A stretch of 64,000 nucleotides of DNA, taken from IMG/VR virus record IMGVR_UViG_3300030447_000318; one strand, 5' to 3'. Below are positions 1,586 to 47,691 of this stretch, piece by piece; position 1 is the first letter of the stretch; the number at the start of each line of letters is the position of its first letter. Made by a program: the position numbers and the translations under genes. Source of the stretch: a virus. The notes under the pieces are model-generated. The model was given only the letters and a program-made list of their open reading frames with translations. It did not search any database and was not told the origin of the DNA.

Positions 1586-2371
1586 CTACTCAAACACCTT
1601 TACAAACTTCTCATAGTTACCATCTCTACCATTTGGAACAGCAAATACAACAGTATCGAAGCATTTATGAATAGTAGTTAAATATTCTTTAAATACATTC
1701 GCTACTTCTGTTGCATCTTGACCAAAAACCCCACAACCATAAGCTCCTAAAATAAGAGTGCTCACATTATTATCTTTTGCCATATCAAGAACAAATTTAA
1801 TTCGACTTCTTAATACTTTAGTATTCTCTTCGTCTGACACGTTCTGATATTTCTGCGCAACCGACTTATTTGGAGCAGCACAAGTAATAACGCTACACTC
1901 TATGTGGCTATTCTCTCTAAAGAACCAAACACCAGGAGAAAATAATCCTCTGTTCAAATATAAAGCCTTATTCTTGTGTCGATTATTCCAATCATAAAAC
2001 TCTAATACAAACTGACTCAACACATTGTACAAGAATGATTCGTGACATAAGCACTCTTCCTGTGCCTTACTACCATTTAGAAACATTCCACCTGGATTTT
2101 TATATGAAGAAAAATTAAGAACTGCTGTACTTGGATTGCCGTATTTCATTACAGCGCCTACACTATCAATATTCTCTACAATAATCTTGGTATCTTTGTC
2201 TTCGATATCCTCTTCAAAATCCCTATTAAATGAATCTGTATCATAAATTTTTGTTGCAGAAATAGCAGTCTGAATACAACGACCATATTTATTCTGCATC
2301 TCTTTTGTATGTTTGCGAGCAGTTTCTGCTCTCTGTTCTTTATTCTGCCAATATTCTTTTATATATGCCAT
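1586..2371 (-). CDS. macro-domain / bacterial-type PARG-like protein (TIGR02452/DUF2263-like)
   Basis: C-terminal signature ...TLILGAYGCGVFGQDATEVANVF... matches the LGAWGCGVFGNDP motif of TIGR02452 macro-like proteins. Confidence 0.55.
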   Translation of the reverse strand: MAYIKEYWQNKEQRAETARKHTKEMQNKYGRCIQTAISATKIYDTDSFNRDFEEDIEDKDTKIIVENIDSVGAVMKYGNPSTAVLNFSSYKNPGGMFLNGSKAQEECLCHESFLYNVLSQFVLEFYDWNNRHKNKALYLNRGLFSPGVWFFRENSHIECSVITCAAPNKSVAQKYQNVSDEENTKVLRSRIKFVLDMAKDNNVSTLILGAYGCGVFGQDATEVANVFKEYLTTIHKCFDTVVFAVPNGRDGNYEKFVKVFE

Positions 2372-2677: not shown

Positions 2678-3604
2678 TTATTCTCCAAAAATAATCTTCT
2701 TAGCCCAATTCATAGTTGCAGAACCACACATCTTACCAAAGAATTCACCAGCTTCGATAACTAATTCATTCTCTTCTTTTACACAATCCTCAAAAATTCT
2801 CTTAGGTAGATTCTGTACAACAATTCTCATGTCCTGTGGCTCAATCTTTTGAGGTAAAACACCCTCATCAATCATTTTGTATAATTCTTTTTGAACACGA
2901 TTCTTTGTGACAATCTGCTCTACAATTTCAGAAGTCTTTGCTTTAGCTGCTAATTTCTGAGGATCTTCTACTTTCTGTCTGTGATTATCTTTCTTGATTT
3001 CACTAAGCTGTGAATTTACAATCTTTAATACAAATGGAGTTCTTGAGTTTAGGTTGTTAAGTTCTGTCTGATTCTTAACGACAATTCCTTCAGGTACATC
3101 AACCGCAATATCTGACTTGTGCATAAATGACATACAATGCTCCCAAGAGATAAACTCTCCATCATAAAATGTCTGAACATATCTCAGATTTAATTCATCA
3201 GCAAGTCTCTTAACCTCTGATTGAGGTAAATAACATTCATTCTTTTTGTCATATACATCGTAAAAATATGATTTACCATAAGCTTCTGGAATATATTTAA
3301 TAGTATGTTTTGTAAGCCACTCCATGAAAAATACATAATTTGGATATTTTTGAAATGGTTCAACTGCCAATGTCTGTACCCAATTCCAGAATCCATTTAA
3401 TGTGTTGTTATAATCAAGAGTCTGCCTTCTCGAAAATGCAACTAACTTATTTGTTTCTTTATCATAAGCAATAGCTGAATTGCTTCCATCTACCTTTTCC
3501 TGAATTACAATATGATCTCCTACATGGAAACCACCTGTATTCGCTACTGTTAATTCCGTATCTTCCTTAATACGTGAAATATCCATAAATTTCTTCTGTT
3601 CCAA
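2678..3604 (-). CDS. ATP-dependent RNA ligase (Rnl2-like nucleotidyltransferase)
   Basis: Motif I EKVDGSN (KxDG lysine adenylation site), motif IV-like EGIVVKN and motif V-like VLKIVN. Size 308 aa. Confidence 0.55.
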   Translation of the reverse strand: MEQKKFMDISRIKEDTELTVANTGGFHVGDHIVIQEKVDGSNSAIAYDKETNKLVAFSRRQTLDYNNTLNGFWNWVQTLAVEPFQKYPNYVFFMEWLTKHTIKYIPEAYGKSYFYDVYDKKNECYLPQSEVKRLADELNLRYVQTFYDGEFISWEHCMSFMHKSDIAVDVPEGIVVKNQTELNNLNSRTPFVLKIVNSQLSEIKKDNHRQKVEDPQKLAAKAKTSEIVEQIVTKNRVQKELYKMIDEGVLPQKIEPQDMRIVVQNLPKRIFEDCVKEENELVIEAGEFFGKMCGSATMNWAKKIIFGE

Positions 3605-6695: not shown

Positions 6696-6935
6696 TTAAT
6701 TCTCTTTTCTTCTCATAACTAACTCAAACGCTGTATTAGGATATGTAATTGAGTATTCCTCTTTCTCACCTTCAGAGTCTTCCATGTTACCCATAAACCA
6801 TTCATATACAGCAGCTATCACATCATTTGTCACATCTATCTTATTACCGACCCACATGTGCTTTTCTGTGTCTTGAGTTCCATAATAAATTGTATTTGTA
6901 ATTGGACTTACGCCAAAACCTTTCTTCTTTGTCAA
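6696..6935 (-). CDS. hypothetical protein
   Basis: 79-aa ORF. Confidence 0.4.
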   Translation of the reverse strand: MTKKKGFGVSPITNTIYYGTQDTEKHMWVGNKIDVTNDVIAAVYEWFMGNMEDSEGEKEEYSITYPNTAFELVMRRKEN

Positions 6936-6956
6936 TTAATTATCCCACCTCTATTT

Positions 6957-7472
6957 CTAAATCAAGCCTTTTTCAATTAGTTCGCTTAAATACGAATATT
7001 TATCTAAGTCAAATAAATCAATAGAATCATCTTCACCAAGAACCCATTTATCACAATTCTCGGTGGCTTCCATTTCGTCAATCCAATTATCCCAATTATC
7101 TGCAATAAGCTGACAAAATTTTTCTCCACTTCCACGCAGGAAGCATCTGCCAACCCATTCGGCTTTCATCTTTCGACTAGGATAAACAAGTGTGAAATAA
7201 ATACCATTAGTAATCAAAGCATCTCTGACTTCCTTGTGGCTACTTACAAAAATATAATCAACCTTACCAATATTCTCTTTAATGGGCTGAATATAATTAT
7301 CAGGAAATTCAGGGTTACGATGTTTTTCAATATCCTCTAATTTTGTCGAATCATAACACCAGCTAAATTTACTACTATCACTATCGAGAATTTTATAACC
7401 TTCTTTACTTAATCTTTCAAACGCATATGTTTTCCCACAAGCAGGAAACGCACTAATAATTTTTGTATTCAT
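6957..7472 (-). CDS. P-loop nucleotide/nucleoside kinase-like protein
   Basis: Walker A motif AFPACGKTYA at the N-terminus. Size 171 aa, consistent with a dNMP or polynucleotide kinase. Confidence 0.5.
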   Translation of the reverse strand: MNTKIISAFPACGKTYAFERLSKEGYKILDSDSSKFSWCYDSTKLEDIEKHRNPEFPDNYIQPIKENIGKVDYIFVSSHKEVRDALITNGIYFTLVYPSRKMKAEWVGRCFLRGSGEKFCQLIADNWDNWIDEMEATENCDKWVLGEDDSIDLFDLDKYSYLSELIEKGLI

Positions 7473-7476
7473 TTTA

Positions 7477-7938
7477 TTATTCTCCTATATTAAATACATT
7501 AGCATCACCAATTGCCAAATCTTTTATATTTATAAAAGCCTTATAATTATCTTCCATAGTTGTAATCAATATCTCATCAAACAAATCTTCCATCATACAA
7601 AAAAATCTTACAGACGGATAAAATCCTGGATATTCTTTCGAACGGTATTTATTAACGTTGCCTCTTAATACAGGAAGTCCATGCCTTCTACGCTTGTTGT
7701 TATTCCAATGGATAGGATCGTCATAAAAAGCTTTCTTCTTTCGTCTGTACTCTTCTAATTCTTTTCTTGCAAGTTTATCAAATTCTTTTTCTCGTTCTGT
7801 TTTCGGAGGTTTGCCATGAATGATGTTGTCAAATTGTTTTCTGATATTATCGTTTGCTGTCTGCATTTCTAAATCACTCACCTTATCAAAGTTCTGAGCA
7901 GCATTTAATAGTATGCTCTCCAAATTGTCATTCTCCAT
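7477..7938 (-). CDS. hypothetical protein
   Basis: 153-aa ORF. Confidence 0.45.
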   Translation of the reverse strand: MENDNLESILLNAAQNFDKVSDLEMQTANDNIRKQFDNIIHGKPPKTEREKEFDKLARKELEEYRRKKKAFYDDPIHWNNNKRRRHGLPVLRGNVNKYRSKEYPGFYPSVRFFCMMEDLFDEILITTMEDNYKAFINIKDLAIGDANVFNIGE

Positions 7939-8950: not shown

Positions 8951-9391
8951 TTACATTGACTTTGCAATTTCATTAACTTGATTATTAAGAAGCTTTACAA
9001 TTAAACGCTTCTTAGCAAGGTTCAAACCTTTATCAAAATCAAAAGTATCATCCTTACAACATGTAGCTTCTGCTTTAAATAAATCACATCTAACCTGAAC
9101 CTTTTTACCATTATCTCTTACGTAATATAGGAAACCTCTTTTCTTACCATTAATATCAATAAAATCGTTATTATACATTACATTCCACTTACTCCAAATT
9201 CTTTTTACAGGTGTCTCAACCTTTTCAAAATACTTTTCATACTCGTCATATGACATACAGCCAAGATGACAACCTCCAAACTTAAAACAGATTACTCCAC
9301 CTTCCTGAATATCAGTTACTTCACAAATCTCACCGATGTTGTCAAAAACACCCATCTTCTTAACTAATTTAATTCGATCGCCTTTAATCAT
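8951..9391 (-). CDS. hypothetical protein
   Basis: 146-aa ORF. Confidence 0.45.
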   Translation of the reverse strand: MIKGDRIKLVKKMGVFDNIGEICEVTDIQEGGVICFKFGGCHLGCMSYDEYEKYFEKVETPVKRIWSKWNVMYNNDFIDINGKKRGFLYYVRDNGKKVQVRCDLFKAEATCCKDDTFDFDKGLNLAKKRLIVKLLNNQVNEIAKSM

Positions 9392-10524
9392 GCCACTTTG
9401 TCCTCCTTATTCGTAAACTTTTTGTTAAATGCATCGATAGCCTTCTGATCTTCTGCCGTTACATCATCATTGAATCTTCGTCTAGCTTGTACAATTCTAT
9501 TGTTCCTTACTTCAATCGTTACCAAACTTTCTTCTGGTTTATTTTTCTTTCTCAAGAACAAAATATGACAATCGCCATTAATCACATCATCTATATATGA
9601 ACTGACACAATTTGACATTTGCACAGATTCATCTTTGATATCTTGTGTAGATTTTGGATAGATAAATACATAGTCGCCAAAAGAACACTCATACTGCTTA
9701 TTTATTCTCTTTCTAAATAACTCCTCTGAAAATTCTTTTTTCATTCTGCTATAATTTCTACAAGCAATTTTGTGTGTTGTAAGAAAATTTTTAGGATATT
9801 TATCATATTTAGGACTAAGCTCTCTCATTAAACTAGCATAATCGTATAGTTCACGAATTAAAAAATCCATATCTTCAATGGCTTCAAATGTTTTAATTCT
9901 ATCCAAATACAACCATAAGTCTTTTGCATTATATCCATATTCATTTACCAACTTGTTAAAAAATGAGTACCATTCTATTTCCCCATTATTATTATTCCAA
10001 CGAGAATCTTCTTTGCTCCAAATAACATAAATATCATTAAGGGTTAAGCTAAAATAATCAAGAGTATATGCTATATAATGCGCATCCTGATTTTCTTTAT
10101 AATATTTAACCATCTCATTTGATATTTTAATAGAATATTTTTTGCACAATTTAATTAGAGATTTCGGAATTTCATTTATAGAATATTGAAAATGACAACG
10201 ATCTGTAATGATATCCTCAAGTCCTGCCGAAAAGATCTGCTCAAAATGTGCGTATTTAGATACTCTATCAAGAATTGTTCCTATATTGTCTATTAAATAT
10301 GAATGGCTTTCTGCGTTCCTAATAAATCGTAGAAACTTCGCATATTGTTTATCATCACAACAATCGAATAATTGTTCTAAATAAAACCCTCTTAATTGAC
10401 TACACAAATTTTTTACTGGCTTGCCTTTTATTCCAATTGCAGTGTTTGTTGCAAAATCGTACTTTACAGTACGACCATCTTCATAGTCAAAGATGAGATA
10501 TTGTTTATCTTTATATACTCTCAT
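9388..10524 (-). CDS. hypothetical protein (378 aa)
   Basis: Long ORF that overlaps the next gene by 4 nt, suggesting translational coupling. Confidence 0.5.
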   Translation of the reverse strand: MRVYKDKQYLIFDYEDGRTVKYDFATNTAIGIKGKPVKNLCSQLRGFYLEQLFDCCDDKQYAKFLRFIRNAESHSYLIDNIGTILDRVSKYAHFEQIFSAGLEDIITDRCHFQYSINEIPKSLIKLCKKYSIKISNEMVKYYKENQDAHYIAYTLDYFSLTLNDIYVIWSKEDSRWNNNNGEIEWYSFFNKLVNEYGYNAKDLWLYLDRIKTFEAIEDMDFLIRELYDYASLMRELSPKYDKYPKNFLTTHKIACRNYSRMKKEFSEELFRKRINKQYECSFGDYVFIYPKSTQDIKDESVQMSNCVSSYIDDVINGDCHILFLRKKNKPEESLVTIEVRNNRIVQARRRFNDDVTAEDQKAIDAFNKKFTNKEDKVA

Positions 10525-10568: not shown

Positions 10569-11130
10569 TTATAAAACTTCATCTACAATGCCATATTCAA
10601 CTGCTTTATCTGAATGAATATAAAAATCTTTCTTCTTTTCACGAATATCTTTTACTTTATCTCTTGTAAGTTTAGTTCTATCAATTACATATTCTTCATT
10701 CTTTTTATTTAACCAATCCATTTCTTCTCTGTCTTCTACTAAATCCTGATACTTTCCACTTCTCCAACAACTCATCTGATGATACATAAAAGTAGAGTGT
10801 TTATAACAGTATCTTTTGTGACCAGCTAAGAAAATCTTAAATGCTGCACTCATGGCATAACCAGTGCAATATGTATAGATTGGAGTTTTACTATTGAGGA
10901 TAATGTCAATTAATCCCCACATATCATAAACAGAACCACCATAAGAGTTGATATACAATTTAATTGGTTCACGCCTATAATCTTTCTCTTTTTTTATCCT
11001 TTTCATCATCAGATTTAATCAATCGTAAAATATTCCATGTTATACTTCCAACCGATTCATTATCTATGTCGTCAGATAAAAATAATATCCTCTCATCTGT
11101 GTTTGCATATATATTATCTTTTGAATTCAT
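10569..11130 (-). pseudogene. clpP: ClpP-family serine protease (S14), reading frame broken by +1 frameshift in an A7 run
   Basis: Downstream part (10569-11009) carries YINSYGG, the catalytic-Ser context GYAMSAAF, His MYHQM and a C-terminal YGIVDEV. An N-terminal ClpP-like segment (MNSKDNIYANTDERILFLSDDIDNESVGSITWNILRLIKSDDEKDKK) is encoded from ATG at about 11130 in another frame. The two frames meet at ggataaaaaaagagaaag, near 10990. Confidence 0.6.
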
Positions 11131-11145
11131 AAAACCTCCTAATTT

Positions 11146-11397
11146 TTATAAGCATTTATCAATTTCTTTACGCAACTGACATAATACCTCGTATGCTCTA
11201 TTGCCTATCTTAGATACACTATCTTTTGGGTTATTTCTGTATTTAGAATTATTTATTAAATCTTCAATACCATTTGTAAGTATCAGAATAATTTTCTCTT
11301 GATTTTTATATCTTATATCATCAATTTGTGGGGCTCCATATGGTTCGCTATATCCTACCAACATTTGTATAACTTCCAACAATGATTCATTCGCCAT
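11146..11397 (-). CDS. hypothetical protein
   Basis: 83-aa ORF. Confidence 0.4.
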   Translation of the reverse strand: MANESLLEVIQMLVGYSEPYGAPQIDDIRYKNQEKIILILTNGIEDLINNSKYRNNPKDSVSKIGNRAYEVLCQLRKEIDKCL

Positions 11398-11750
11398 TAA
11401 AATTCTCCTTCTGTATATGGCTTATCCCAACACTTTTTACAATCATTTTCGCACGAAACTTTCTTACTCAAATGGCTAACACAAAGAAAAGGGTGTCCTT
11501 TCCACATTGAAGCGTTCGGGAACATTTTTAGAAAATGCTCTTTTCTAGTTTCTACCTGATGTTCGTCGCTCCATTTCTGAACAATTTCTATCGCTTCATC
11601 GGGATATGTTCTTTCAAACACTTCACATGGCAAGTCGGTCTTGTTATTGTCATTACTAATCGGACAATCTTCACAAGCTATTTCGCAATTCTTAATCATT
11701 CTATTCTTTTCTTTAAAATAATTTTCTGTGTATCCGCAATCAACTTTCAT
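11397..11750 (-). CDS. Cys-rich hypothetical protein
   Basis: 117 aa with multiple Cys pairs (CEIACEDCP..., CENDCKKCWD). Confidence 0.45.
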   Translation of the reverse strand: MKVDCGYTENYFKEKNRMIKNCEIACEDCPISNDNNKTDLPCEVFERTYPDEAIEIVQKWSDEHQVETRKEHFLKMFPNASMWKGHPFLCVSHLSKKVSCENDCKKCWDKPYTEGEF

Positions 11751-11871
11751 TTTTCTATTCTCCTTTATTTAATATAATATTTTCTAAATGATTATGTGGG
11801 TAGGGATTTTCACCCTACATGATTCTGCTCACACTACTTACTTTCCTATACCAGATTAGCTAATTAATCAG

Positions 11872-12312
11872 CTAACACAGAATCCTACCCTGTGTGTCTA
11901 CATATTCCACCACCACATATTTTTTTAAAAATACTGCTTCAAATCCAATACAAATGTATTTTTGTAATGCTTTTTTATCGTTATTACTGAATAACTGTCT
12001 CTCATCGACCAAAATAAGAGAACCATGTTTTACTCTTTCTTCCAACTGTATTGGAGTTATAACTATAGGTTGAAACTTTCTATAACACTCGCAAGCCCAT
12101 TTAGCTGACATAATGTTTGATTCAATAAGAGGAATTTTGTATTTTCCACTAATCTTCATTAGATTATATGCTTTTCCAATTCCCCTACTGTTAAAATGAT
12201 ATAGCCTTTTTATATGTGTTTGCTTCTTCTTTACATAATACTTCAGCTCATGATATAATGCTTTTGATCTTAATAAATATGACCATGATTCTAATCGTTC
12301 ATAAAATTTCAT
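11872..12312 (-). CDS. hypothetical protein
   Basis: 146-aa ORF. Its 3' end is embedded in a long imperfect inverted repeat. Confidence 0.45.
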   Translation of the reverse strand: MKFYERLESWSYLLRSKALYHELKYYVKKKQTHIKRLYHFNSRGIGKAYNLMKISGKYKIPLIESNIMSAKWACECYRKFQPIVITPIQLEERVKHGSLILVDERQLFSNNDKKALQKYICIGFEAVFLKKYVVVEYVDTQGRILC

Positions 12313-12480
12313 ATATATGGCATCATCTCCTTTTCTGTATACTATATATAGTAGTTATGTATTTATCTAACCACTACATATTGTGATATAAACCGCATGA
12401 AATCCGTCTTTCATTGGTTTTTTGAGTCTCTGAAACGCCCTATTTATGGGCATTCCAAAAATCCTCTACTGTATTATTCT

Positions 12481-13236
12481 CTACAATTGAGCTAATAAAC
12501 TCTTAATTGGTTCTCTATTCATGTTTTCTTTAGCCCATGAGATATAATCAGGATCAATTTCTTTGATTTGTGGAAGTGTCTTTCCTGAATATTTTCCAAA
12601 TGTAATTACATAAGAATCAAGGTCTGGCAAATCTTCCTTTGGAATATCAACACCACCTAATGCAGAAACTACATCATCAGAATATGTCATATCAAGATTT
12701 GACCTACTTGCTAAATAATCGCACATATGTACAAAGAACTGCTCGTCATTTTCAGGCTTTGGCAATACTGTCTTACTTCTTTTTGTAGAAGTCCATTCAC
12801 CCGAATGACTCTCACATAATCTTGCAATATATACTTTTGTATCATCGTCTACATCATGCTCAACAGATGTATTTCTCACCCACTTACCTGCAAGTATTGG
12901 ATGTTCGTGTACCGTATATTGAGAACCATTTAGCCCACATTTAATTGCATCATGAAAAATTGGTGTGCAGCGCAAACAATCTCGCTGTCGCTCATTGGTC
13001 TTTTCTTTTACATACTCTAATCCAAGAACATAATTCATTACTTCTGCAAACATTAAAACGTGAAAAATCTGACCATGTGGCTGACACTGTGTTTTATTAT
13101 GATACTTAAAAGATGTACTACTTGGAATTGTGAAGATATAATCTGGAATTTCCTTAATCATATCAGCACAATAATCTCTAATCTCATCTGTCTCAAACTT
13201 GTTTAATAGTCCTTCAAAAACTTTTACTTTGTCCAT
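12481..13236 (-). CDS. HD-domain phosphohydrolase with C-terminal KYxGKT (ExoX-C-like) tail
   Basis: H...HD pattern (FHVLMF...IFHDAIKCG) and C-terminal ITFGKYSGKTLPQIKEIDPDYISWA motif. Confidence 0.45.
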   Translation of the reverse strand: MDKVKVFEGLLNKFETDEIRDYCADMIKEIPDYIFTIPSSTSFKYHNKTQCQPHGQIFHVLMFAEVMNYVLGLEYVKEKTNERQRDCLRCTPIFHDAIKCGLNGSQYTVHEHPILAGKWVRNTSVEHDVDDDTKVYIARLCESHSGEWTSTKRSKTVLPKPENDEQFFVHMCDYLASRSNLDMTYSDDVVSALGGVDIPKEDLPDLDSYVITFGKYSGKTLPQIKEIDPDYISWAKENMNREPIKSLLAQL

Positions 13237-13315
13237 ATTTTCTCCTTTACTTTAATATCTTTGAATCTAAACAATTTTTACATAATTCGTATATCATCCT
13301 ACCCATATATTCTCT

Positions 13316-13864
13316 CTATCGAAGATAATTCTTTAAGAAATATTCAAAATATTCTCTGATAAACAGTCCTGAATATTGATTATTTGGCATAAACATAACT
13401 GGAATATTATATTTAAACCAAAAGCTGTGTATTGATGCAATAAATGATTTTCGATTGTACTTCGTATCATAGTTCCCTATTGCTATATCTTCATAAGAAG
13501 CGTTTTCGATTAGCAATACTTTGGTCTTTGGTGCAAGACATAATTCTTTTTCAAATCTATCACGCTCTTTTGTCAGATTACCACTTATCTCTTCAAGACT
13601 TGCTTTTCTCTCAATGACACATGAATTTGTAAAATACAAATCACGAAGTATTCCAAGCTTTTCATTAGCTGGTATCATGAATGAATAATCACCATAGCTT
13701 AAAGCTTTCTTTTTATATTTAATTTCTTTTCTATCAAAATAATCTGTGATGTGGGAATTGACTTTTTCTCTTGTGTCAACAAGGATTACAATGGAAGATA
13801 TTAACTCTTCCATTTCCTTATCTGTGTACTTATATTTGTTAAATATCGTCTTCGTCCTCCTCAA
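13316..13864 (-). CDS. ERCC4/Mus81-type nuclease-like protein
   Basis: The motifs VDTREK...GDY...ERK lie in the order and spacing typical of ERCC4-domain nucleases. Confidence 0.45.
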   Translation of the reverse strand: MRRTKTIFNKYKYTDKEMEELISSIVILVDTREKVNSHITDYFDRKEIKYKKKALSYGDYSFMIPANEKLGILRDLYFTNSCVIERKASLEEISGNLTKERDRFEKELCLAPKTKVLLIENASYEDIAIGNYDTKYNRKSFIASIHSFWFKYNIPVMFMPNNQYSGLFIREYFEYFLKNYLR

Positions 13865-16800
13865 TATCGTTTTTTATTACAAATTTACTCAACCAAAATT
13901 CAAATTTATCGGGTACTTCTTTATAAATTTTCTTACCTGTAACTGGATTTATTTCACCAGTTGGCTCTTTTTTATTCTTCTTTTCAAGGGAAATAATATA
14001 TAAGATTAAACCTTTATTGAACGGGTTACGATTGTATGCACTTGTCCACATTTTGACTGTTCGTGTCTTACCACTATAAATCTCAAATAGAGTAATTGTT
14101 GTAAGATATTTCGTAGAATTAATGTCTGATACATAATATAGTCGTTTGTTAGCTGTTGGCTGAGTATAAGACACATATCCATATAATTCTTGCTGATAAT
14201 TAAAAATATCTAAAATAGAAGTCTCTTTATAATCCACATTCTTTACAATATCTTTTAACAACGATATTGAATCAAAATCCTTCCAGATTTTTTCTGTTTG
14301 TTTTTTACAGTGAGATTTAACAATATCTTTAGGTAATCCCAATTCTTCAAGTTTATCTATCTTGAATTGTTTTTTACCATACACCTTATCAAAATAATCT
14401 GTTTGAGCAAGTAGAGTATTTATTTCACCAAACTCAGAAAAGAAATTCAATTTAATCAATATCTCTAATTGTTTGGAATTAACAGAAGTATTTTTTATAT
14501 CAATAAGCAAATCTATAAAATCGTTGTACTTCTTATCTTTCAAAGTGTACAAATCATCTCCAACATTATCGCCGATATACTTAATAGACGACATTCCTTT
14601 GTATATGGTATTATTCTCTTTATTGTAAGAATATTTTGATGTTGAGTATCTAAATTTAATATCGCTCAATTTGATATTGAAATAATCCAGTTCCTTTTTA
14701 AGCTTATTTGTTCTTACTTGATCATCTGCGTAATTATTGAAACATACACTGTAATATTCAAGTGGATAATTAACCTTTAAATATGCACCATAACACATAT
14801 CAAGAGATGTGGCTGCCGCATGAGCACTACAGAATCCATAACTCATACAGCTCTGAATCATTTTCCAAGTTGTATCAAACCCACCCTCTGAACCAGTATT
14901 GATTATCCATTGTTTTCTGATTCTTTCTTCGAGATTAGCAAAGTCTTCTGGTTTTATTTTCTTTTTAGATATCTTTTTGATTAATCCAATAGACTCAGCA
15001 GGTGTTACACCAAGCCAATCAAAATATTGCATTAAAGACTCTTGGAATAATATATATCCATGTGTATCACTTAAAACTTCGTCCAATTGTTCTGAACCAG
15101 TTGTATAATCTTCTCGATTTAAAAATTGCTCTCTCCATGAGTCAAACGATGGTCTGATAGCTGCCGTTAAGTGAGCACCATCTTCAAATGAGGACACTTT
15201 ATATCTTTTTGCTTGTTGCGATCCATTGTCGCTATCCACCTGATTAAGAGTACAGGTTATTCCATTCTTAAATAAATCCCATATTCTCTTATCATCTTTG
15301 ATAGATTTTAACAACTCATTCGCTGTAATAATCGGTTTTCCAATCTCTTTAAACGTTTCATCAATTAATTTCCAAACCTTGACGATTAGATAGTCGTTTT
15401 TAAGCACTTTGTATTCATCAGCTTCAGATGATGTTATTAATACACAAAGATTTTCTCCTAACCTAGTTACACCATATTCGTATAATAAATTCTTATCGCT
15501 TAGAATGTGGGCGCAGGGATGTACTGAACCAGATACGATTGTTCCTACATATTTATTCGCTTCTTCTATGATTGGTTTCCATTTTTCATCATTTTCATAA
15601 GCTTCAAGATTTTTTGCTACATCATTAAATTCATCAAAATCCATACCTTTTGAACGACATACATTTCTAAATGCCTCTGAAATCTGCATAGTTCCAGGTG
15701 CATACATTGGATAACAACCATGCTCTCCCAATAATTCTCTTGAAGCTTTAACGAATGGCTCTTGACTTTTAACATTAAAATCAATATCTGGGAGGGAACG
15801 ATTTTCTAATAATCGAGCAGTGGAAGCAAATCTATCAGGGAAAAGTGGAAGATTAATTTTAAATCTATCAAGCTGAGTCATTCCCAATATTCTATTTATA
15901 TAAAAAGAACCACAGCTACCTCTTCCACCTCTTGTAAGTACTCCACCATATTTATTTACTGCTAAATCAACATTTTTCTCATTAAATAGGAAATAATCTG
16001 CCGTATGAACTTTATCATTTGTATCCTCTATGATTTTCATTTCATATCGAATACCATCTCGGTATCTTTTAAAATCATCATCAGATATATTTTCTTGTTC
16101 TCTAATGACTTTAAATCGCTTGTTGATTTCTTTTTTGAGGAGTTTTACACGCTGATTTGGCGTAAGATTTGGATAGATGGTTGGCATCTTGATAGAATAG
16201 TCAAGTTTGATTTCTTCACAATTATCAAATATCAGAGTATTATTAATCGCATCATCAATTTGTTTATCTGACAAAACATTTTGTTTTTTGAATCTCTCTA
16301 TCATTGTCTCAGCAGTTGGATAATCTAAAATAAAATCATCCTCACTACCATAATTAATATGTTTACCTTTTAATAATTCAAGACGTTCTTGTTTGCCTTC
16401 TTCGTTAATATAATGGGAATCATTGGCGGCAATCAATGATAACCCGTATTCATCCGAAAAATAAATAGCTTTTTTGTTTATCTCTATCTGAATGGGATCA
16501 AGATGAGTTTGGACTTCAAGCATTACATTATTGCCAAAATGTTTAAATAATGGCTTAAATATTTTTTCAATTGAATCCTCATCTCTCAAAAGACCTGCTA
16601 CGCAGGCAGTTGTAATATACACATCATCCCTATCCAAAGCAAGTAAATCCTTCATAAAAAATCTTGGTTTATAATAAAATCCATTGATATTCGCCATACT
16701 TGAAACATAATTCATCTTTTTTCTTGCTTCATCAGTTTTTGGAATTACAATAATATGGTAATTCCTTTTATCTTTCTCAGAAGCGTCTGGTACAATATAT

Positions 16801-31562: not shown

Positions 31563-32432
31563 TCACTTCTTATCTGTTACTACAGTTGATGTACCATTAA
31601 TTGTTACCCAACCATGCTTAACTCTAGCTTCAGCTTCTTTCATTCTGATAAGTTCATCGGTAATAGAAGAACTTAACTGTTTATTTGCTTCTGCTTGAGC
31701 CTTTGCTTCGATTAATTCGGCGTCTGCTTTAGCCTGTGCTTCTGTTCTTGTCTTTTCAGCATCGGCTTTTGCTTTTTTAATAGCAGTCTGATTATTAATT
31801 TCCTGTGTTTCTGCTGCCTGCTGTGCCGTAATCTTTGCGTTAATGGCTTCCTGAGTCTTTTCGTCAACAGTAATATTAATAAGTGAAACATTACTTATTG
31901 TTATGCCGTAAGGTTCAAACTTCTTATTAAGATAATTTGTGAGTGCAGTATTAACATTTGCTCTTTCTGAGCCAAGAATATCTGATACCTTATAATTTGC
32001 TACTACCTCTTTAGTCCAAGAGATAATGTTTGGCTTAATGAAACTATCTCTTACTTCTTTACCAGCCTGACCACGAAATCTTGTGAATAAGTCAGAAACC
32101 TTGTCAGCATTATATTGATATGTAAATGTAAGGTCTATCTGCAAAGCCTTGCCTTCTGATGAACTAGCCGAAAAACTATCATTCTCACTAGAATCACCAT
32201 TCTTACCAGCTGTCAAATAAGACTGCTCGAGACTTGTTGAATATAAAGTAGTCTTTACCATAGGTGATTTGAAATGCCAACCTTGAGTTAAAACCTTGTC
32301 TTTAATGCCACCATTCATGCTATACTGTATTGCCACATAACCAGCAGGTACTCTTACTGTTGATTTTACTAATAAAATTACTACTATAAGCAATACTATA
32401 CCTGATATAATTCCACCAATTGTCTTTTTCAT
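31563..32432 (-). CDS. SPFH/band-7 (prohibitin/HflK-like) membrane protein
   Basis: N-terminal TM, SPFH core (GYVAIQYSMNGG...QGWHFK) and an Ala/Glu/Lys-rich coiled-coil C-terminus. Confidence 0.65.
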   Translation of the reverse strand: MKKTIGGIISGIVLLIVVILLVKSTVRVPAGYVAIQYSMNGGIKDKVLTQGWHFKSPMVKTTLYSTSLEQSYLTAGKNGDSSENDSFSASSSEGKALQIDLTFTYQYNADKVSDLFTRFRGQAGKEVRDSFIKPNIISWTKEVVANYKVSDILGSERANVNTALTNYLNKKFEPYGITISNVSLINITVDEKTQEAINAKITAQQAAETQEINNQTAIKKAKADAEKTRTEAQAKADAELIEAKAQAEANKQLSSSITDELIRMKEAEARVKHGWVTINGTSTVVTDKK

Positions 32433-34463: not shown

Positions 34464-34801
34464 GCTGACACCCCATTAAGTTGATTTTTAATTCTAATAA
34501 CTTCATCTAAAGCACTTGTTAGAGAAGCTTCGTGCTTTTCTCTATACAACTCAACTGCTTTAACATAATTACCAACTCTGATACATTCTTCTACTGTTGG
34601 TTCAAGAATTTCTCTCTTTATACCTCTACAAGAAGCTGCGTATTGTCTTAGCGCAGCTAAATCATCACATGGAATACCCTTTTTATGGTTTACATTTGAA
34701 ATCAAACTTAACTCATAATTGGTAATAATGCCTCCATTTACCAGTTCAAAATACAAAATCTTATTCATAACTCTCATCCTTTCTATATATTTACATTGCA
34801 A
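34460..34801 (-). CDS. hypothetical protein
   Basis: 113-aa ORF. Confidence 0.4.
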   Translation of the reverse strand: MQCKYIERMRVMNKILYFELVNGGIITNYELSLISNVNHKKGIPCDDLAALRQYAASCRGIKREILEPTVEECIRVGNYVKAVELYREKHEASLTSALDEVIRIKNQLNGVSA

Positions 34802-36170
34802 TAAAGTTATCTACATCATTCTTCATCACTAAGTAATTCTCTTTTTGGTCTTTGATGTATGTATTGTTTTTATTAAAGTAATCGACGAACCAATCTTTTA
34901 ACTCAATTTCTTTTTCAAAACTGTAAGCTACAAGAGATAATAAAGATAGTCTATTTTCTTTTTCTAATAGTTTTGAGCTGTTGTCTACTTCGACAGTATA
35001 ATCGTCTAGCATTGAACTAAACAATTCCATTCTATCTTCATCTACTTCGACAGAAGTAACGTCTGTTACAAACTGTTCTATTTCTTCATTTGTATATTCT
35101 CTACTTGGTTTTGGAATTTCCTCTTGAAAGTATTCTTTCATTAACTTTTCAAGCATATCTAATTTTGCAAAGACAACCTTTTTATCTTTGCTATTCTTAT
35201 CCTTATCGTATGTATTAAAAGTTTTATCCTCATATTCTGAGAATGTTTTGTTATGTAAGTTATTCTTAAATTCTAAAAGGAAGTCATTAAATCTCGCAGC
35301 TTCTATTTTATAATCCAAGAATTTATGGAACAAACTAAAGAAAAGGAAACTATTCTTTACATTGAATAATTTACCTGTTTCTTCATCAACAATATTTGCC
35401 AACATGTCTAATTCGTTGTTCAATGTATCAAACTCTTCTTTACTTGCATTTTCATTTAAGTGTTTGAATAAAGATTTCCCTCTTGTATATTCTTCAGCAT
35501 GAAACATTATTGTTATAGCTTCATAGACAACTCTATTAAGCTTTCCGTTTTTCAATGCTGCTTCTCCATAATCTCCACAGTTTTTAAAGAAATTATTATT
35601 AATTGTATCTTTTATATATGTAGCAATATTTGACATTGGAAGAATACTCTTTTCTTCTGCGTTCATACTTGTTTGTCTATTGTATCTTGCCATATGATAT
35701 GCTATTTCTTCGTCTGTACAATCTAAATGTTTAACTACATTGATTGGATAACTGTCGAAAGCATCCTGCAATTCTTCGGGTAAATCTTTAAACCATTTAC
35801 CTCTTAAATCGTATTCAACTACTTTCATTTCTCCGTTTATACACTGTTGATAATACACAAATGGCATTTCTAAGCTCTTACTTATTCTAAAAGCACCATT
35901 TCTGTACTCTTCAAGTGCAGTCAATCTCTGCAGTCCATCAATTAGCCACAAAATAAAATCTGTTTTATTTAAGATTTGCTCACAAATTTTAAGTGAATCT
36001 AAATCTTCTCCCTTTATAATAGTAGAGACTAGACCACTTTTTGCAGTATTTTGCCAACGGTCAGCATGTCTCTGTAAAGGATGATTTTTATTTAACTGTC
36101 CTCTCTTAAACATTTTTAATAAAACTTTAACCATGTACGTATCTGTTTTTGTCTTGTCTCTACCAAGCAT
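34791..36170 (-). CDS. DUF262 (ParB/Srx-fold, GmrS-like N-terminal domain) protein
   Basis: Hallmark DGQQR-type motif present as IDGLQRLTAL. Size 459 aa. Confidence 0.5.
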   Translation of the reverse strand: MLGRDKTKTDTYMVKVLLKMFKRGQLNKNHPLQRHADRWQNTAKSGLVSTIIKGEDLDSLKICEQILNKTDFILWLIDGLQRLTALEEYRNGAFRISKSLEMPFVYYQQCINGEMKVVEYDLRGKWFKDLPEELQDAFDSYPINVVKHLDCTDEEIAYHMARYNRQTSMNAEEKSILPMSNIATYIKDTINNNFFKNCGDYGEAALKNGKLNRVVYEAITIMFHAEEYTRGKSLFKHLNENASKEEFDTLNNELDMLANIVDEETGKLFNVKNSFLFFSLFHKFLDYKIEAARFNDFLLEFKNNLHNKTFSEYEDKTFNTYDKDKNSKDKKVVFAKLDMLEKLMKEYFQEEIPKPSREYTNEEIEQFVTDVTSVEVDEDRMELFSSMLDDYTVEVDNSSKLLEKENRLSLLSLVAYSFEKEIELKDWFVDYFNKNNTYIKDQKENYLVMKNDVDNFIAM

Positions 36171-37965: not shown

Positions 37966-38283
37966 TTATTCTATTTTCTCTTCTTCATTGTTCCGTGGTA
38001 CAAGTAGAAAAGTGCTAACCTTCCCTTCTCTTTGTATCTTTTTAATATTTTGTTTAGTAGAGTAAGCATCGATTGTTTGAACCAATTCGTCACATCGTCT
38101 TGCCACTGTCTCTGCCTGTTTAATCATATCTATACAAGTCTCTTTGAATATGGGTAAGAAACTTTCTACACAGTTTTCTTCTAAGTTGCAAATAGAAACA
38201 GGAATTTTATTACCCTTAGATTCTTTTATTAACTTTGTAGCTTCTTCTTCTGTTATTTCGATTATTGCAGCTTTAAAGCACAT
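37966..38283 (-). CDS. hypothetical protein translationally coupled to MazF-like toxin
   Basis: 105-aa ORF. Its ATG overlaps the mazF-like stop. Confidence 0.45.
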   Translation of the reverse strand: MCFKAAIIEITEEEATKLIKESKGNKIPVSICNLEENCVESFLPIFKETCIDMIKQAETVARRCDELVQTIDAYSTKQNIKKIQREGKVSTFLLVPRNNEEEKIE

Positions 38284-38682
38284 TTATTCACTCACTCCTT
38301 CTATGTTGCATATATAAGCATTATAAATTTGTTGCTTATATTTTTTATCTGTTATTTTTCCTCTATAATCTAAAATTCTACTCTTATCTACTTGACGAAC
38401 AGCTTCGCCTAAAACAATACTATCTTCTGTTAAAGCAGATATAAATTCGCTTTTAAGGAGGACATGTGTTGGTTGTTTTAAACTTTTCTTTTGAGAAGTC
38501 AATGGCAATACGATTGTTGTCGGACTATAATAATTTCCAATATTATTCTGAATAACCACAGCAGGTCGAATGCCTCCTTGTTCACTTCCAATTGGGACAT
38601 CGCCAAAATCAACAGTAACAATATCATATGCCTTAATTTTTATTTCTCGTTTACATTTATGTTCTTTTTTACTCTCAACCAT
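38284..38682 (-). CDS. mazF: MazF/PemK-family endoribonuclease toxin
   Basis: VDFGDVPIGSEQGGIRPAVVIQNNIGNYYSPTTIVLPLTSQ...QPTHV aligns closely with MazF/EndoA. Confidence 0.75.
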   Translation of the reverse strand: MVESKKEHKCKREIKIKAYDIVTVDFGDVPIGSEQGGIRPAVVIQNNIGNYYSPTTIVLPLTSQKKSLKQPTHVLLKSEFISALTEDSIVLGEAVRQVDKSRILDYRGKITDKKYKQQIYNAYICNIEGVSE

Positions 38683-39029: not shown

Positions 39030-39815
39030 ATGCTGATTAGCGAAAAATTTGAGCTTATTAGAAAAGCGAACAATTTAACAAAAATGAAGTTCTGTGACAA
39101 AGTAGGAATGTCTCGATCTCATTACGACAGTTTACTTGCTGAAAAAAACAGCGATAAAATTATCAATAAGACTACCAATATATCTATAATCAATAGCATA
39201 TGTTATTTATTTAATGTGGATAAACAATGGTTGACTAATGATGAAAGCAATATTGATTTTTTTGATAAAAAATTTAATCAACAAATTGTTGATAATTATA
39301 TGTTGCTGTCAGAAGCAAGCAAAAATATTGTTGATAATCTTATTGATGGTTTATTGGAATTAAATAACAATCAACCGTCAACTACTCAACAGCCAGTAAT
39401 CAGATTAGCTGTATATGACCAACCAGTATGTGCTGGTAATGGTAACTTCATTACGGACGCAACAAAAACATTTAAGGATTTCCCTAATGCCCCGTCTGAT
39501 GCTGATTTCGCAGTTAGAGTTCAAGGCGATTCCATGACACCTGCTTACAACGATGGTGATTTAGTGTTTGTTAAATCTACCGACACATTGAATAACGGAG
39601 ATGACGGTATTTTTATCGTAGATGGCGATATAACGCTAAAAAGATTTATGGGTAATGAATTAATCCCATTAAATCCAAAATACTCTAAAATAAGCCAAAA
39701 AGCTATAATTCAAGGCAAAGTGGTTGGCATCGCAGAACATCACTCTGATTTAGAGGCTGAAGTTTTAGATATTGTAAACCAAGACAAGCCGCAAAACTTA
39801 AAAAAATCTATTTAA
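39030..39815 (+). CDS. cI/LexA-like repressor (N-terminal HTH plus C-terminal S24 peptidase)
   Basis: N-terminal HTH. C-terminal VRVQGDSMTPAYNDGDLVFV...LKRF (Ser/Lys dyad). Confidence 0.7.
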   Translation: MLISEKFELIRKANNLTKMKFCDKVGMSRSHYDSLLAEKNSDKIINKTTNISIINSICYLFNVDKQWLTNDESNIDFFDKKFNQQIVDNYMLLSEASKNIVDNLIDGLLELNNNQPSTTQQPVIRLAVYDQPVCAGNGNFITDATKTFKDFPNAPSDADFAVRVQGDSMTPAYNDGDLVFVKSTDTLNNGDDGIFIVDGDITLKRFMGNELIPLNPKYSKISQKAIIQGKVVGIAEHHSDLEAEVLDIVNQDKPQNLKKSI

Positions 39816-41759: not shown

Positions 41760-42719
41760 TTATACTATCCTGAGTTTATTCGCCATATTTATAGCTGTTT
41801 GATACTTATCTACATCATCAGTAAGATACCTAATAATTTTTCCTAAATCATCAGATTTTAAGGAGATAACAGGCATATTCTTGACTATTTCATCACCTTT
41901 ACCAGCCAATACATTGTGGATAAACTCACCATGGTCATCAATCAACTGTCTATTTTTCTCTTCTGTTAAACCGATGTAATTCATAGTGATTTGCAAATCT
42001 GTATGATTAAACAGTTTCTGCAATGATAACAAACAATCGGGGTCAAATGGATGTGTCTTATGAATCCAGTAACCAAAACTCTTACGAAGAGAGTGAGTGC
42101 TTACAGCGTATTGTATATTCGCTGCTTTAACTGCTTTGTTTAACTTCTTTCTGTAAACCTCTGTCTGCTGTTTTACAACATCGTTATATTCGACTACATA
42201 ATAAAGATAATCTCCAAGAGATAAGTATCTTTGCTGTTTATTAAAGTCTTTGATTATTTTCTCTTTTCTATCTTCTGATATAGTCTTATTTAACGCTTTA
42301 CACCAAAGTTCTATATCGTTTTTACTGTATATATCCAAGCCTTTTCTCTTTATCCAGTTCGTTTTAGGAATATACTCGAAGATATATTCGTTGTAATGTT
42401 TCTTTATATCAACATCTACATTCTCCAAGTATTTATCTAAGGCTTCAAATACAGTATTACTTATAGGGAGATTAGTAACTTTTCCTGTTTTTTGTTCTTC
42501 AATTGTATTTATTTCTCTTTTTCTGCTTCCGTTTTCGTAGTATATATCAGACCATTTCATCATTACTGTATCTCCAATTCTTCTACCAAGCAGGAGTTCT
42601 AACATTGTAATGAGATAACCATCCCATTCATGGTTATTTTCAAACCATTCAACTACATTTCTAATGTCTTCCATTTTCCAAAACGGATATACTTCAGTTT
42701 TCTCTTTTCTTTTTGTCAT
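41760..42719 (-). CDS. int: tyrosine site-specific integrase
   Basis: Catalytic-region motifs HSLRKSFG and ...ITMNYI (Tyr). Size 319 aa. Confidence 0.7.
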   Translation of the reverse strand: MTKRKEKTEVYPFWKMEDIRNVVEWFENNHEWDGYLITMLELLLGRRIGDTVMMKWSDIYYENGSRKREINTIEEQKTGKVTNLPISNTVFEALDKYLENVDVDIKKHYNEYIFEYIPKTNWIKRKGLDIYSKNDIELWCKALNKTISEDRKEKIIKDFNKQQRYLSLGDYLYYVVEYNDVVKQQTEVYRKKLNKAVKAANIQYAVSTHSLRKSFGYWIHKTHPFDPDCLLSLQKLFNHTDLQITMNYIGLTEEKNRQLIDDHGEFIHNVLAGKGDEIVKNMPVISLKSDDLGKIIRYLTDDVDKYQTAINMANKLRIV

Positions 42720-44472: not shown

Positions 44473-44739
44473 TTAATAAATTGAATAACACATTGCCATC
44501 TTGTCACCCATTGGGGTAATCACAACATAAAAAATATTTCTATTATTCCACGTGTATTTAAAAACATCCTTCGTGTTTGATGGTTGACCTACTGTACATA
44601 CTGTGTCACCAATATTAACCTTCTTAGTTTCAGGAATGCCTAAAGCTTCTCTTATATCTTTCCCAAGTCTACTACCTTTTGCAATTTTATTGTATTGATC
44701 ATCACTTAATGTTGTCACTTTATCCATTATTATTTCCAT
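44473..44739 (-). CDS. hypothetical early protein
   Basis: 88-aa ORF. Confidence 0.4.
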   Translation of the reverse strand: MEIIMDKVTTLSDDQYNKIAKGSRLGKDIREALGIPETKKVNIGDTVCTVGQPSNTKDVFKYTWNNRNIFYVVITPMGDKMAMCYSIY

Positions 44740-44782
44740 AATTATATTCTCCTTTCGCTTCCGTTTGAAAACTTGGTTTCAT

Positions 44783-45001
44783 TTATTTATATTTAGTCTC
44801 TTTTGTTCTTACATCTATTCCTATGACTTCTTTCTCTCTCTCGTTAAATATAAATTTTAAAACAGGTGTGCCGAATTCCGGATCAATAGTAGCCCATCCT
44901 CTAGCTCTTTCATCATCAACTAATTCTACAGACTTGTATCCCTCTTTCTTTTTCTCTTTAAGAAAGGTTATTACACTATCAATATCTGAACTAATTCGCA
45001 A
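44783..45001 (-). CDS. hypothetical early protein
   Basis: 72-aa ORF. Confidence 0.4.
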   Translation of the reverse strand: MRISSDIDSVITFLKEKKKEGYKSVELVDDERARGWATIDPEFGTPVLKFIFNEREKEVIGIDVRTKETKYK

Positions 45002-45003
45002 TA

Positions 45004-45534
45004 TTATACACCTCTTTCAATAAATTCTTTGTCAAATTCTCTATCAGTATCAACAAATTCACCTACTGAACCAATAATAGCCGATTCAATATCATCATCT
45101 TCTTCAATGTATTCGTCTTCTTCATCATCCCAATTTTCTTCAAATTTAAAAAAACCATCGCATTCATAAATACTACCAGCCTTTTTAATTTCGTTCTGCT
45201 GTAATAAATATTCTTCATCAAGAAGGGTATCTGCAATTTCTTTTAATAAATCTTCATAATCACTACCACATTCGCAATTTGAAATTCTATGTAAAATTTC
45301 ACTTCCTTTATCTGTATTTTGATCTAACCAATTTGCATAACTTGATATATCATTACGCCAACCGTCAACATAATGTTTGTTGTCAAATACATCACCATCG
45401 TTGTACCATTTATATATTAACTTACAAACTGCTGTTACAATCTGTGTTGCTTTTGTATTCCCTTCTCCCCAAACGGTTAAATATAAATCGTTTACATTTT
45501 TAAATTTTTTAAAATAAATTCCTTTTACTGACAT
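45004..45534 (-). CDS. acidic hypothetical protein
   Basis: 176 aa with a strongly acidic C-terminal half (DDEEDEYIEEDDDIES). Confidence 0.45.
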   Translation of the reverse strand: MSVKGIYFKKFKNVNDLYLTVWGEGNTKATQIVTAVCKLIYKWYNDGDVFDNKHYVDGWRNDISSYANWLDQNTDKGSEILHRISNCECGSDYEDLLKEIADTLLDEEYLLQQNEIKKAGSIYECDGFFKFEENWDDEEDEYIEEDDDIESAIIGSVGEFVDTDREFDKEFIERGV

Positions 45535-45718
45535 AAAAATTACCTCGCTTTTTTCATATTTTATATTATCTTATTATAACACAACATCATTTTTTGATAC
45601 AGTATGCCAATCATCAAAATAGTATACATATACCAACAGTATATCTGGATGTATAGCATATTCAACATACTTATTTACTTTTAGCATACCAAATCTTTTA
45701 AGCAAGTATTTAGTCATA

Positions 45719-46309: not shown

Positions 46310-46356
46310 ATCTTTATCCTCCTTGTATAATTTCTCTAATTTGTTTATATAAATAT

Positions 46357-46381
46357 AACCTCAAAAATAATTTTTGAGGTT
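46357..46381. terminator. rho-independent terminator hairpin
   Basis: Perfect palindrome aacctcaaaaat-aat-ttttgaggtt. Confidence 0.5.
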
Positions 46382-46388
46382 ATATTTC

Positions 46389-46859: not shown

Positions 46860-47021
46860 TCCTTTTTTAATTATGTTTTATTTTTTTAATTTAGCTCTTG
46901 ACATATAATTAGTTTATTACACATTGTGTAGTATGTCAAGTGCTTAGTATGCTTTATCTAATTCTCCTAAGATTTCCAATACATCTCTTTCGTCAACCTT
47001 CATATGCTTATTGTCTCGAGT

Positions 47022-47498: not shown

Positions 47499-47549
47499 AT
47501 TTATTACCTCCTTAAAACAAACAATTTTATTAATTTTTTAAAAATGCCC

Positions 47550-47645: not shown

Positions 47646-47691
47646 CATAATCATAACAAAATTTTGTCAGGGTGTGAACCACACCCTATTA

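Follow-up and report, generated by a model that had tools for sequence, protein, structure and literature searches.

A phage-encoded bacterial-type PARG as a candidate RNA de-ADP-ribosylase in an island of RNA repair and NAD+ genes

INTRODUCTION

Bacterial-type PARGs are widespread, and outside Deinococcus little is known of what they do in the cell. In this study, we analyzed a PARG-like gene at positions 1586 to 2371 of a 64,000-nucleotide (nt) stretch of viral DNA (IMG/VR record IMGVR_UViG_3300030447_000318), hereafter called the window, and compared it with the described members of its family and with other phage enzymes acting on ADP-ribose (ADPR). It was not until 2025 that bacterial-type PARGs were shown to act on ADP-ribosylated RNA and to have a protective "immunity" role. 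Among the bacterial hydrolases tested, only DRB0099 of Deinococcus radiodurans and SCO0909 of S. coelicolor removed the ADPR installed on RNA 2'-OH groups by RhsP2, in the product of which the 1''-2' ribose-ribose bond is the one also found in poly(ADP-ribose) (PMC11833690). In the literature, hydrolysis of ADPR bonds of the O-glycosidic or phosphate-linked kind has been demonstrated only for DRB0099, SCO0909, and T. curvata PARG within the family. Both enzymes also removed ADPR from the 5'-phosphate ends of RNA and DNA, required the catalytic glutamate for activity, and protected cells from the RNA-targeting toxin (PMC11833690). DRB0099 is encoded in an operon of ligase, PARG, and polynucleotide kinase (PNK)/HD genes, which was proposed to repair nucleic acid ends blocked by ADPR (PMC11833690).

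Phages encode several other enzymes of ADPR metabolism. Adpp, a Poa1p-like macrodomain, serves as the ADPR-1''-phosphate phosphatase in the NARP1-AP pathway of phages (Osterman et al., bioRxiv 10.64898/2026.01.28.702374), and RyDEP is an RyR-domain glycosidase for 2'/3' cyclic ADPR (cADPR) found in NARP1 operons (PMC13232231). PARG and TIGR02452 proteins are mentioned in neither of these two papers. Phages also reverse DarT modification of DNA, for which AdfN, an orphan ADP-ribosylglycohydrolase of the NADAR type, has been described (PMC11825919), as has a DarG2-like macrodomain of a chimallivirus (PMC13309987). According to comparative surveys, about 40% of medium phages and 56% of jumbo phages carry macrodomains, for which roles in the degradation of ADPR signals and in NAD+-dependent RNA repair were proposed; these surveys do not single out a PARG-type clade (PMC7824862, PMC9503650). 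Our literature search found no paper characterizing a phage PARG-like enzyme.

RESULTS

The PARG-like coding sequence started with ATG, was located on the minus strand, and encoded a protein of 261 amino acids (aa), at exactly the position where an earlier note on this DNA had placed an open reading frame (ORF) with the motif LGAYGCGVFG. In a hidden Markov model (HMM) search, the protein scored well above the cutoffs of two families: TIGR02452 gave an E value of 1e-56 and 192.5 bits (cutoff, 50) over model positions 27 to 256 of 266, and PF10021 (PARG_cat_microb, the microbial-type PARG catalytic domain) gave an E value of 2.5e-27 and 96.5 bits (cutoff, 23.5). A 90%-clustered database held 2975 homologues at E ≤ 1e-5, and 7395 representatives of 50% clusters matched at E ≤ 1e-3. 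At the N terminus, M1 and W8 were invariant in close homologues. The ratio of nonsynonymous to synonymous substitution rates (dN/dS) was 0.06 to 0.15 against ten cleanly alignable close viral copies; the copies at loci L042-44 and L074/75, which were equal in length and misaligned, gave meaningless values and were excluded. Purifying selection on the gene is therefore strong. Based on the HMM scores, the number of homologues, the conserved N terminus, and the low dN/dS, the ORF is a genuine gene and not a chance ORF.

The only solved structures with sequence similarity to the protein were those of the PARGs of D. radiodurans (5ZDA-5ZDG, 6e-25) and T. curvata (3SIG-3SIJ, 2e-22), and its identity to DRB0099, T. 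curvata PARG, and SCO0909 was approximately 26 to 30%. The AlphaFold2 model, built from an input of 42 homologues, had a predicted local distance difference test (pLDDT) score of 85.7 and a predicted template modeling score (pTM) of 0.86. Foldseek matched this model best to T. curvata PARG (3sih; template modeling score [TM], 0.81; E, 5e-17) and D. radiodurans PARG (5zdb; TM, 0.75), with E values in the range of 5e-17 to 1e-13. Generic macrodomains such as MacroD2, viral nsP3, and macroH2A reached a TM of at most 0.48, and no Poa1p entry was present in the top 50 fold matches.

The active-site motifs were examined in the alignment to the solved enzymes. The catalytic loop GGM-x7-QEE (residues 94 to 106) was encoded at 2092 to 2054 on the minus strand (GGMFLNGSKAQEE) and aligned to 5zdf, with Q104, E105, and E106 falling on the QEE of D. 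radiodurans PARG. The loop, NPGGMFLNGSKAQEE, lies N-terminal of the diphosphate-binding loop LGAYGCGVFG (1750 to 1721 on the minus strand, residues 208 to 217), which aligned with LGAWGCGVF of the same enzyme. Across 41 sequences 39 to 64% identical to the protein, N86, G94, G95, G100, A103, Q104, E105, E106, G209, A210, G212, G214, and F216 were invariant. T267 of D. radiodurans PARG, the ribose-cap position that determines exo versus endo activity, fell outside the aligned part of the proteins. As reported by Slade et al. in 2011, the catalytic signature of PARGs is GGG-X6-8-QEE. The form GGx-x7-QEE was present in 336 of 341 family sequences, with the 7-residue spacing in every one found. 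In the window protein, methionine takes the place of the third glycine in the canonical GGG, and GGM (227 of 341 sequences) was more frequent than GGG (46 of 341). GGM is thus the majority state of the gut/phage subfamily, and the third glycine is not a conserved position in the family, so that the protein keeps the conserved core of the signature and deviates at position 3.

Altogether, the protein is a full-length bacterial-type PARG (TIGR02452/PF10021) in all of the sequence and structure features that could be tested. The HMM matches, the sequence matches in PDB, the predicted fold, and the motif conservation agree with the earlier note, which had called it a macro/PARG-like ADPR-processing protein of the TIGR02452 type, and both the macro fold and the Gly-rich loop are present on proper alignment. 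Among the homologues, P0243 (396 aa) was a fusion of the PARG-like domain with a YAcAr SLOG domain. In another homologue, P0122 (512 aa), the PARG-like domain was tandemly duplicated.

Upstream of the PARG-like gene, a gene for an RNA ligase was located at 2678 to 3604 on the minus strand. The protein belongs to the PF09414 family (1.1e-21), has a KVDG motif I, and matched phrog_548 (6.9e-45); it was the only RNA-repair-type gene in the window. The ligase gene ended 306 nt upstream of the PARG-like start in the same orientation, and no convincing terminator was found between the two genes. Downstream, 216 nt past the PARG-like stop, a terminator-like hairpin with an 8-bp stem and a T-run was located at 1370 to 1337 on the minus strand, which is likely the end of the transcription unit. 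Because no convincing terminator separates the genes and the hairpin with its T-run follows the PARG-like gene, the two genes are probably cotranscribed. The noncoding stretch of 215 nt at 1371 to 1585 was conserved at approximately 92 to 94% in some relatives (L011 and L016). A structured RNA in this stretch was considered and rejected, with no Rfam match at E ≤ 1 and a fold z-score of -1.15, and only the terminal hairpin looks functional.

The interval between the two genes contained a mosaic junction. In relatives, a gene that we call F15 precedes the PARG-like gene; in the window, a 3'-end remnant of F15 (39 codons, 2372 to 2491 on the minus strand) ended in a TAA stop directly abutting the PARG ATG. 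By translation and tblastn, the remnant was 70 to 81% identical to the last ~52 to 56 residues of F15 proteins. A 60-aa ORF without a family assignment (2493 to 2675 on the minus strand) spanned the junction. DNA homology to the relatives covered only 1592 to 2530 of the window (~93%) and ended at 2530, and a 55-nt piece at 2528 to 2582 on the minus strand matched the 5' part of F15. The arrangement at 2372 to 2582 implies that F15 lost ~350 bp internally and that the RNA ligase cassette took the place of the region upstream. An RNA ligase of the window type was found within 10 kb of the PARG-like gene in 3 of 78 loci, two of which were the same phage; these were the window's own lineage (L009 and L010) and L072 (40% identity), where the ligase was at -4.4 kb. 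With this count and the break in homology at 2530, a conserved RNA ligase-PARG pair in close relatives was rejected. The ligase reported ~300 nt away in the earlier note is therefore real, and its adjacency is a feature of one lineage rather than a conserved pairing. Neither RNA ligase lineage, that of the window or the one described below, had sequence relatives in PDB.

That the gene is carried by a phage, as the earlier note had proposed, is well supported. Two IMG/VR contigs (L009 and L010) encoded a PARG-like protein 100% identical to that of the window, and approximately 40 further IMG/VR contigs, many of 130 to 157 kb, had copies 86 to 97% identical. The window has a G+C content of 30%, and nearly all of its genes lie on the minus strand. 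The closest relatives of its DnaE-type polymerase came from large clostridial phages (phiCD211, c-st, and Clostridioides phages; 42 to 43% identity), and its other replication genes encoded a RecJ-like exonuclease, a primase, a DnaB helicase, a Sak4-like protein, and a replication initiator. An integrase (41760 to 42719, minus strand), an S24 CI/LexA-like repressor on the strand opposite to most genes (39030 to 39815, plus strand), and one tRNA-Gln were also encoded. No structural gene was found within the window, and no GenBank phage matched it at the nucleotide level. Based on the viral copies in IMG/VR, the phage-type replication and lysogeny module, and the clostridial-phage relatives of the polymerase, the assignment of the window to a phage is well supported, and it looks like a large temperate gut phage of the clostridial type.

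Relatives of the PARG-like protein were encoded in at least 263 IMG/VR stretches. In GenBank, 20 of 50,697 phage records encoded a PARG-like protein, and almost every one of these was a genome of ~0.5 Mb (Lak megaphages, Bacillus phage G with gp114, and LR7565xx). The protein matched no PHROG family. A mainly chromosomal distribution was considered on account of homologues on long contigs and was rejected, given that L087 (508 kb), L088 (206 kb), and L091 (131 kb) were phage-like gene arrays. The only clearly chromosomal copies were P0109, which directly follows a MoxR-type AAA+ gene, and P0063, which lies beside an integrase fragment. A cellular context for the same subfamily was seen in the bacterial chromosome at L089/L090 (5041 to 6813), where a 63%-identical PARG-like gene started 4 nt past a MoxR-type AAA+ gene (PF20030 bpMoxR) at a locus that also held PP2C, PASTA kinase, and RsgA housekeeping genes. 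In Bacillus phage G (L093, 59400 to 73924), the PARG-like gp114, unannotated in GenBank, was at 6755 to 7585, and gp122 (10951 to 11430), a classical "Appr-1-p processing" macrodomain, was located 3.4 kb from gp114 and downstream of a tRNA cluster.

The neighborhoods of the PARG-like gene were compared after the loci had been dereplicated to 25 lineages at 80% PARG-like identity; all neighbor counts are lower bounds, as only homologues of the query set were detected. Copies more than 90% identical to the window gene had mosaic flanks, usually with a C5 DNA methyltransferase upstream and varying small ORFs downstream. RNA-repair-type genes were present within 1, 3, and 10 kb of the PARG-like gene in 5, 7, and 10 of the 25 lineages, respectively, and comprised RNA ligases from two lineages unrelated to each other, PNK/HD, Thg1, RlaP, and CCA-adding enzyme. 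The nearest repair gene was less than 1 kb away in 5 of these 10 cases, which corresponds to a P value of 0.002 for one randomly placed gene. An independent phage clade (L049-L053/L085), the PARG-like protein of which was 52% identical to that of the window, had the most complete array, in which the PARG-like gene was followed by an unrelated PF09414 RNA ligase (27-nt gap), a kinase+HD gene, and an NAD-dependent DNA ligase. A ligase of this second type was also found at +0.9 kb in L104. In addition, a Thg1-like enzyme was encoded at +0.5 kb in L055-L062, with a DUF2828 protein upstream; L087 had RlaP at +0.4 kb, with SIR2 at -1.6 kb; and RlaP and a CCA-adding enzyme were upstream of the gene in L088.

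NAD+ genes were found within 1, 3, and 10 kb of the PARG-like gene in 2, 2, and 3 of the 25 lineages, respectively, and in 9 of the 78 loci within 10 kb. In six loci (L018, L022, L024, L031, L035, and L046; about 10810 to 14500 in each), a nicotinamidase-like (PncA-like) gene started 25 to 185 nt past the PARG-like stop and was followed, at the same insertion spot, by either NAPRT-NMNAT-NadE or an Adps-like/Namat-like pair. The Adps-like and Namat-like genes were 0.5 to 1.5 kb downstream of the PARG-like gene in L024 and L031, and the Namat-like protein matched the Namat crystal structures 9W5W/9W5X at 9e-117. Both NAD+ cassettes open with the isochorismatase/nicotinamidase-like gene, and a nicotinamidase beside the nicotinamide-consuming Namat is an odd pairing. 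An NAD+ salvage cassette was also located 0.8 to 5 kb downstream in L088 (7605 to 11998). Obligate coupling of the PARG-like gene to NAD+ reconstitution was rejected on these counts and on the window itself, where no NAD+ gene, including Adps and Namat, was recognized among minus-strand ORFs of ≥60 aa. In L004 (128 to 325), an Acb2/Tad1-hairpin (PF24729) gene lay upstream of an 80%-identical PARG-like gene, at a distance of three genes. Acb2/Tad1-hairpin proteins are a signal-sponge family of anti-defense proteins.

Several other features of the window, all on the minus strand, were recorded. In the lysogeny region, which also holds the integrase and the S24 repressor, a PemK/MazF-like toxin (38284 to 38682; PF02452, 3.7e-24) adjoined a 105-aa ORF (37966 to 38283); this phage MazF endoribonuclease shares the genome with the RNA ligase and may merit a look. 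A 459-aa protein at 34791 to 36170 matched the PADLOC model NsnA at 8.2e-12 and phrog_2598 (unknown function) and may be a prophage-encoded defense component. The window also encoded a short ClpP-like protease of 146 aa (10569 to 11009), a Band_7/SPFH protein (31563 to 32432), an ERCC4-type nuclease (13316 to 13864), and a PcfJ-like protein (9388 to 10524). From 44700 to 64000, approximately 45 consecutive small and mostly acidic ORFs, none with a Pfam family, formed an early-type gene block.

DISCUSSION

We tentatively favor the reading that the PARG-like protein is a nucleic acid de-ADP-ribosylase, acting chiefly on RNA, which would work with RNA healing and sealing enzymes against NAD+-dependent RNA-modifying toxins or defenses of the host. 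This reading is favored because the catalytic elements are conserved, the RNA ligase is probably cotranscribed, the Deinococcus-type gene set was rebuilt in independent phages, and DRB0099 and SCO0909 have the corresponding activities. In the proposed mechanism, the macrodomain cleft would bind the ADPR moiety, with the diphosphate held by the GAYGCGVFG loop, and Glu105/Glu106 of the GGM-x7-QEE loop would catalyze hydrolysis at C1'' of the distal ribose, releasing free ADPR and the unmodified acceptor. The acceptor may be RNA that was ADP-ribosylated on a backbone 2'-OH or a terminal phosphate by NAD+-dependent host toxins or defense ADP-ribosyltransferases (ARTs). The PARG-like enzyme would clear the block, and the RNA would then be restored by the cotranscribed RNA ligase and, in other phages, by end-healing enzymes as well. 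The family, the fold, the intact motifs, the purifying selection, the phage location, and the neighborhoods were observed in this analysis, and the catalytic activity, the RNA substrate, and the counter-defense role of the window protein are inferred. A role against ADP-ribosylating immunity, which the earlier note had suggested, would fit the mosaic accessory island of DNA methyltransferases, NAD+ cassettes, and RNA repair genes in which the gene lies.

Several observations weigh against this reading. To our knowledge, no RNA-targeting ART has been described for the presumed hosts. The adjacency of the RNA ligase is a recent mosaic insertion specific to one lineage and is missing in most relatives of more than 90% identity, and neither homologue search nor Pfam gave a PNK, HD, or other end-healing gene in the window. 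No RNA-repair gene was detected within 10 kb of the PARG-like gene in 15 of the 25 lineages; the gene sits between primase and RecJ in L076-L082 and comes after the terminase in L074/75/83. The P value for the proximity of RNA-repair genes becomes 0.03 to 0.1 once each locus may hold several repair genes, and large phages cluster many accessory genes, against which the proximity counts have no genome-wide background. Furthermore, the NAD+ cassettes abutting the gene in some close relatives and the SLOG fusion of P0243 point to soluble ADPR derivatives.

A soluble substrate is the main alternative, though we consider it doubtful. The enzyme would convert a host-made derivative into plain ADPR, thereby silencing signaling, feeding NARP1 NAD+ reconstitution, or both; the candidates are 2'cADPR and 3'cADPR (both Thoeris signals), ADPR-1''-phosphate from RES NADases, and O-acetyl-ADPR from SIR2. 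The O-glycosidic bond between the riboses of 2'cADPR and 3'cADPR is of the type that PARGs cleave, and NARP1 or salvage cassettes directly abut the PARG-like gene in close relatives, with the same salvage cassette in L088. The Acb2/Tad1-hairpin gene near an 80%-identical homologue and the fusion to a SLOG domain are consistent with this view, and Adpp and RyDEP are precedents for ADPR-making enzymes of two other classes in NARP1 operons. However, most relatives keep the PARG-like gene without NAD+ genes, and none was found in the window, although the sequence past coordinate 1, downstream of the gene, lies outside it. In addition, cleavage of cADPR isomers or ADPR-1''-phosphate is not known for any enzyme of the PARG type, and Adpp is Poa1p-like rather than PARG-like. 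The more specific proposal that the protein is a macrodomain glycosidase for cADPR-type immune signals, feeding the phage NAD+ reconstitution of the NARP1 and salvage cassettes, is improbable. If true, it would define a new enzymatic class of anti-signaling and NAD+ recycling, a macrodomain counterpart of RyDEP and Adpp that is widespread in large gut phages.

Removal of mono- or poly-ADP-ribose from phage proteins modified by a host ART, or from the products of a phage ART or PARP that the enzyme would temper in a classical writer/eraser pair of the PARP-PARG kind, would agree with the founding activity of the family, poly(ADP-ribose) hydrolysis, and with the PARGs of T. curvata and D. radiodurans as the top structure matches. 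Large phages do encode ARTs and PARP-like proteins (PMC7824862), and SIR2 homologues were within 1.6 to 2.5 kb of the gene in a few lineages. We regard this explanation as unlikely, as no ART, PARP, or SIR2 family was found by Pfam in the minus-strand ORFs of ≥60 aa of the window (the rest of the ~150-kb genome may hold writers) and no ART was found among the conserved neighbors examined in related loci. Reversal of DarT-type modification, the example given in the earlier note, would make the protein an orphan antitoxin that cleans thymidine- or guanosine-linked ADPR from phage DNA. Phages do use orphan ADP-ribosylglycohydrolases against DarT (PMC11825919, PMC13309987), and one lineage has the PARG-like gene in a replication module, namely between primase and RecJ. 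Against this, a DarG-like or Thoeris-macro-like defense or antitoxin component was rejected, with no PADLOC match, DarG models included, at E ≤ 0.001 for the protein or its neighbors, and the fold and HMM matches belong to the PARG class and not to the TARG1/ALC1/DarG class. Human PARG does not remove DarT adducts (PMC9967889), guanosine-linked ADPR was reversed only by NADARs and by no macrodomain hydrolase in PMC11833690, and the known phage anti-DarT enzymes are of the NADAR or DarG2-like kind. The DarT example is therefore highly improbable. A noncatalytic ADPR binder serving as sponge or sensor, or a gene without a role in infection such as a lysogenic-conversion passenger, also seems very unlikely: some macrodomains only bind ADPR (PMC9503650) and methionine replaces the third glycine of GGG, but neither QEE nor the two Gly loops vary, most subfamily members have GGM, and the gene is under strong purifying selection.

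The PARG-type subfamily is abundant in large gut phages, where it is under purifying selection in islands with RNA-repair and NAD+-reconstitution modules. The gene is therefore a testable candidate for an uncharacterized phage counter-defense against NAD+-dependent immunity, and the phage setting offers a natural route to the physiological substrate of the family. The advance would be incremental rather than surprising, since many medium and jumbo phages were already known to carry macrodomains and 2026 brought descriptions of two other phage enzymes that liberate ADPR.

The window protein resembles the bacterial-type PARGs DRB0099, T. curvata PARG, and SCO0909 in HMM family (TIGR02452/PF10021, formerly DUF2263), fold, and the QEE and GAxGCGVF loops, and like them it is a single-domain protein of similar size (~250 to 280 aa). 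Unlike these enzymes, it is phage-borne, has no PARP nearby, and has GGM in place of GGG. Its locus shares with the D. radiodurans operon of DRB0100 (ligase), DRB0099 (PARG), and DRB0098 (HD phosphatase and polynucleotide kinase) a ligase adjoining the PARG-like gene on the same strand, whereas only the ligase half is matched, no PNK/HD was found in the window, and the ligase was inserted recently. The full DRB0100-0098 gene set recurs as a tight array in the phage clade L049-L053/L085 (PARG-like, RNA ligase, and kinase+HD, plus LigA), and the ligases are not orthologous between the systems. Adpp is likewise a phage macrodomain that yields free ADPR, and relatives of the window gene directly abut NARP1/NAD+ salvage cassettes; however, the window gene is of the PARG class, has no NARP1 in the window, and shows the association as an optional one (3 of 25 lineages). 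RyDEP, which adjoins NARP1 genes, targets the bond type that PARGs hydrolyze in poly(ADP-ribose), but its RyR fold (PF02026) is unrelated to the macro fold. With AdfN and the chimallivirus DarG2-like enzyme the shared concept would be that of a phage-borne ADP-ribosylglycohydrolase erasing a host defense modification, while those enzymes have another fold (NADAR) or macro class (DarG/TARG1-like) and act on another bond, the base-linked ADPR on DNA. The window protein is thus neither DarG-type nor Adpp-type, and the window contains no recognizable PARP-PARG pair. Altogether, the enzyme family is a known one, to which the window gene adds a phage member from a PARG-type clade that the macrodomain surveys did not single out.

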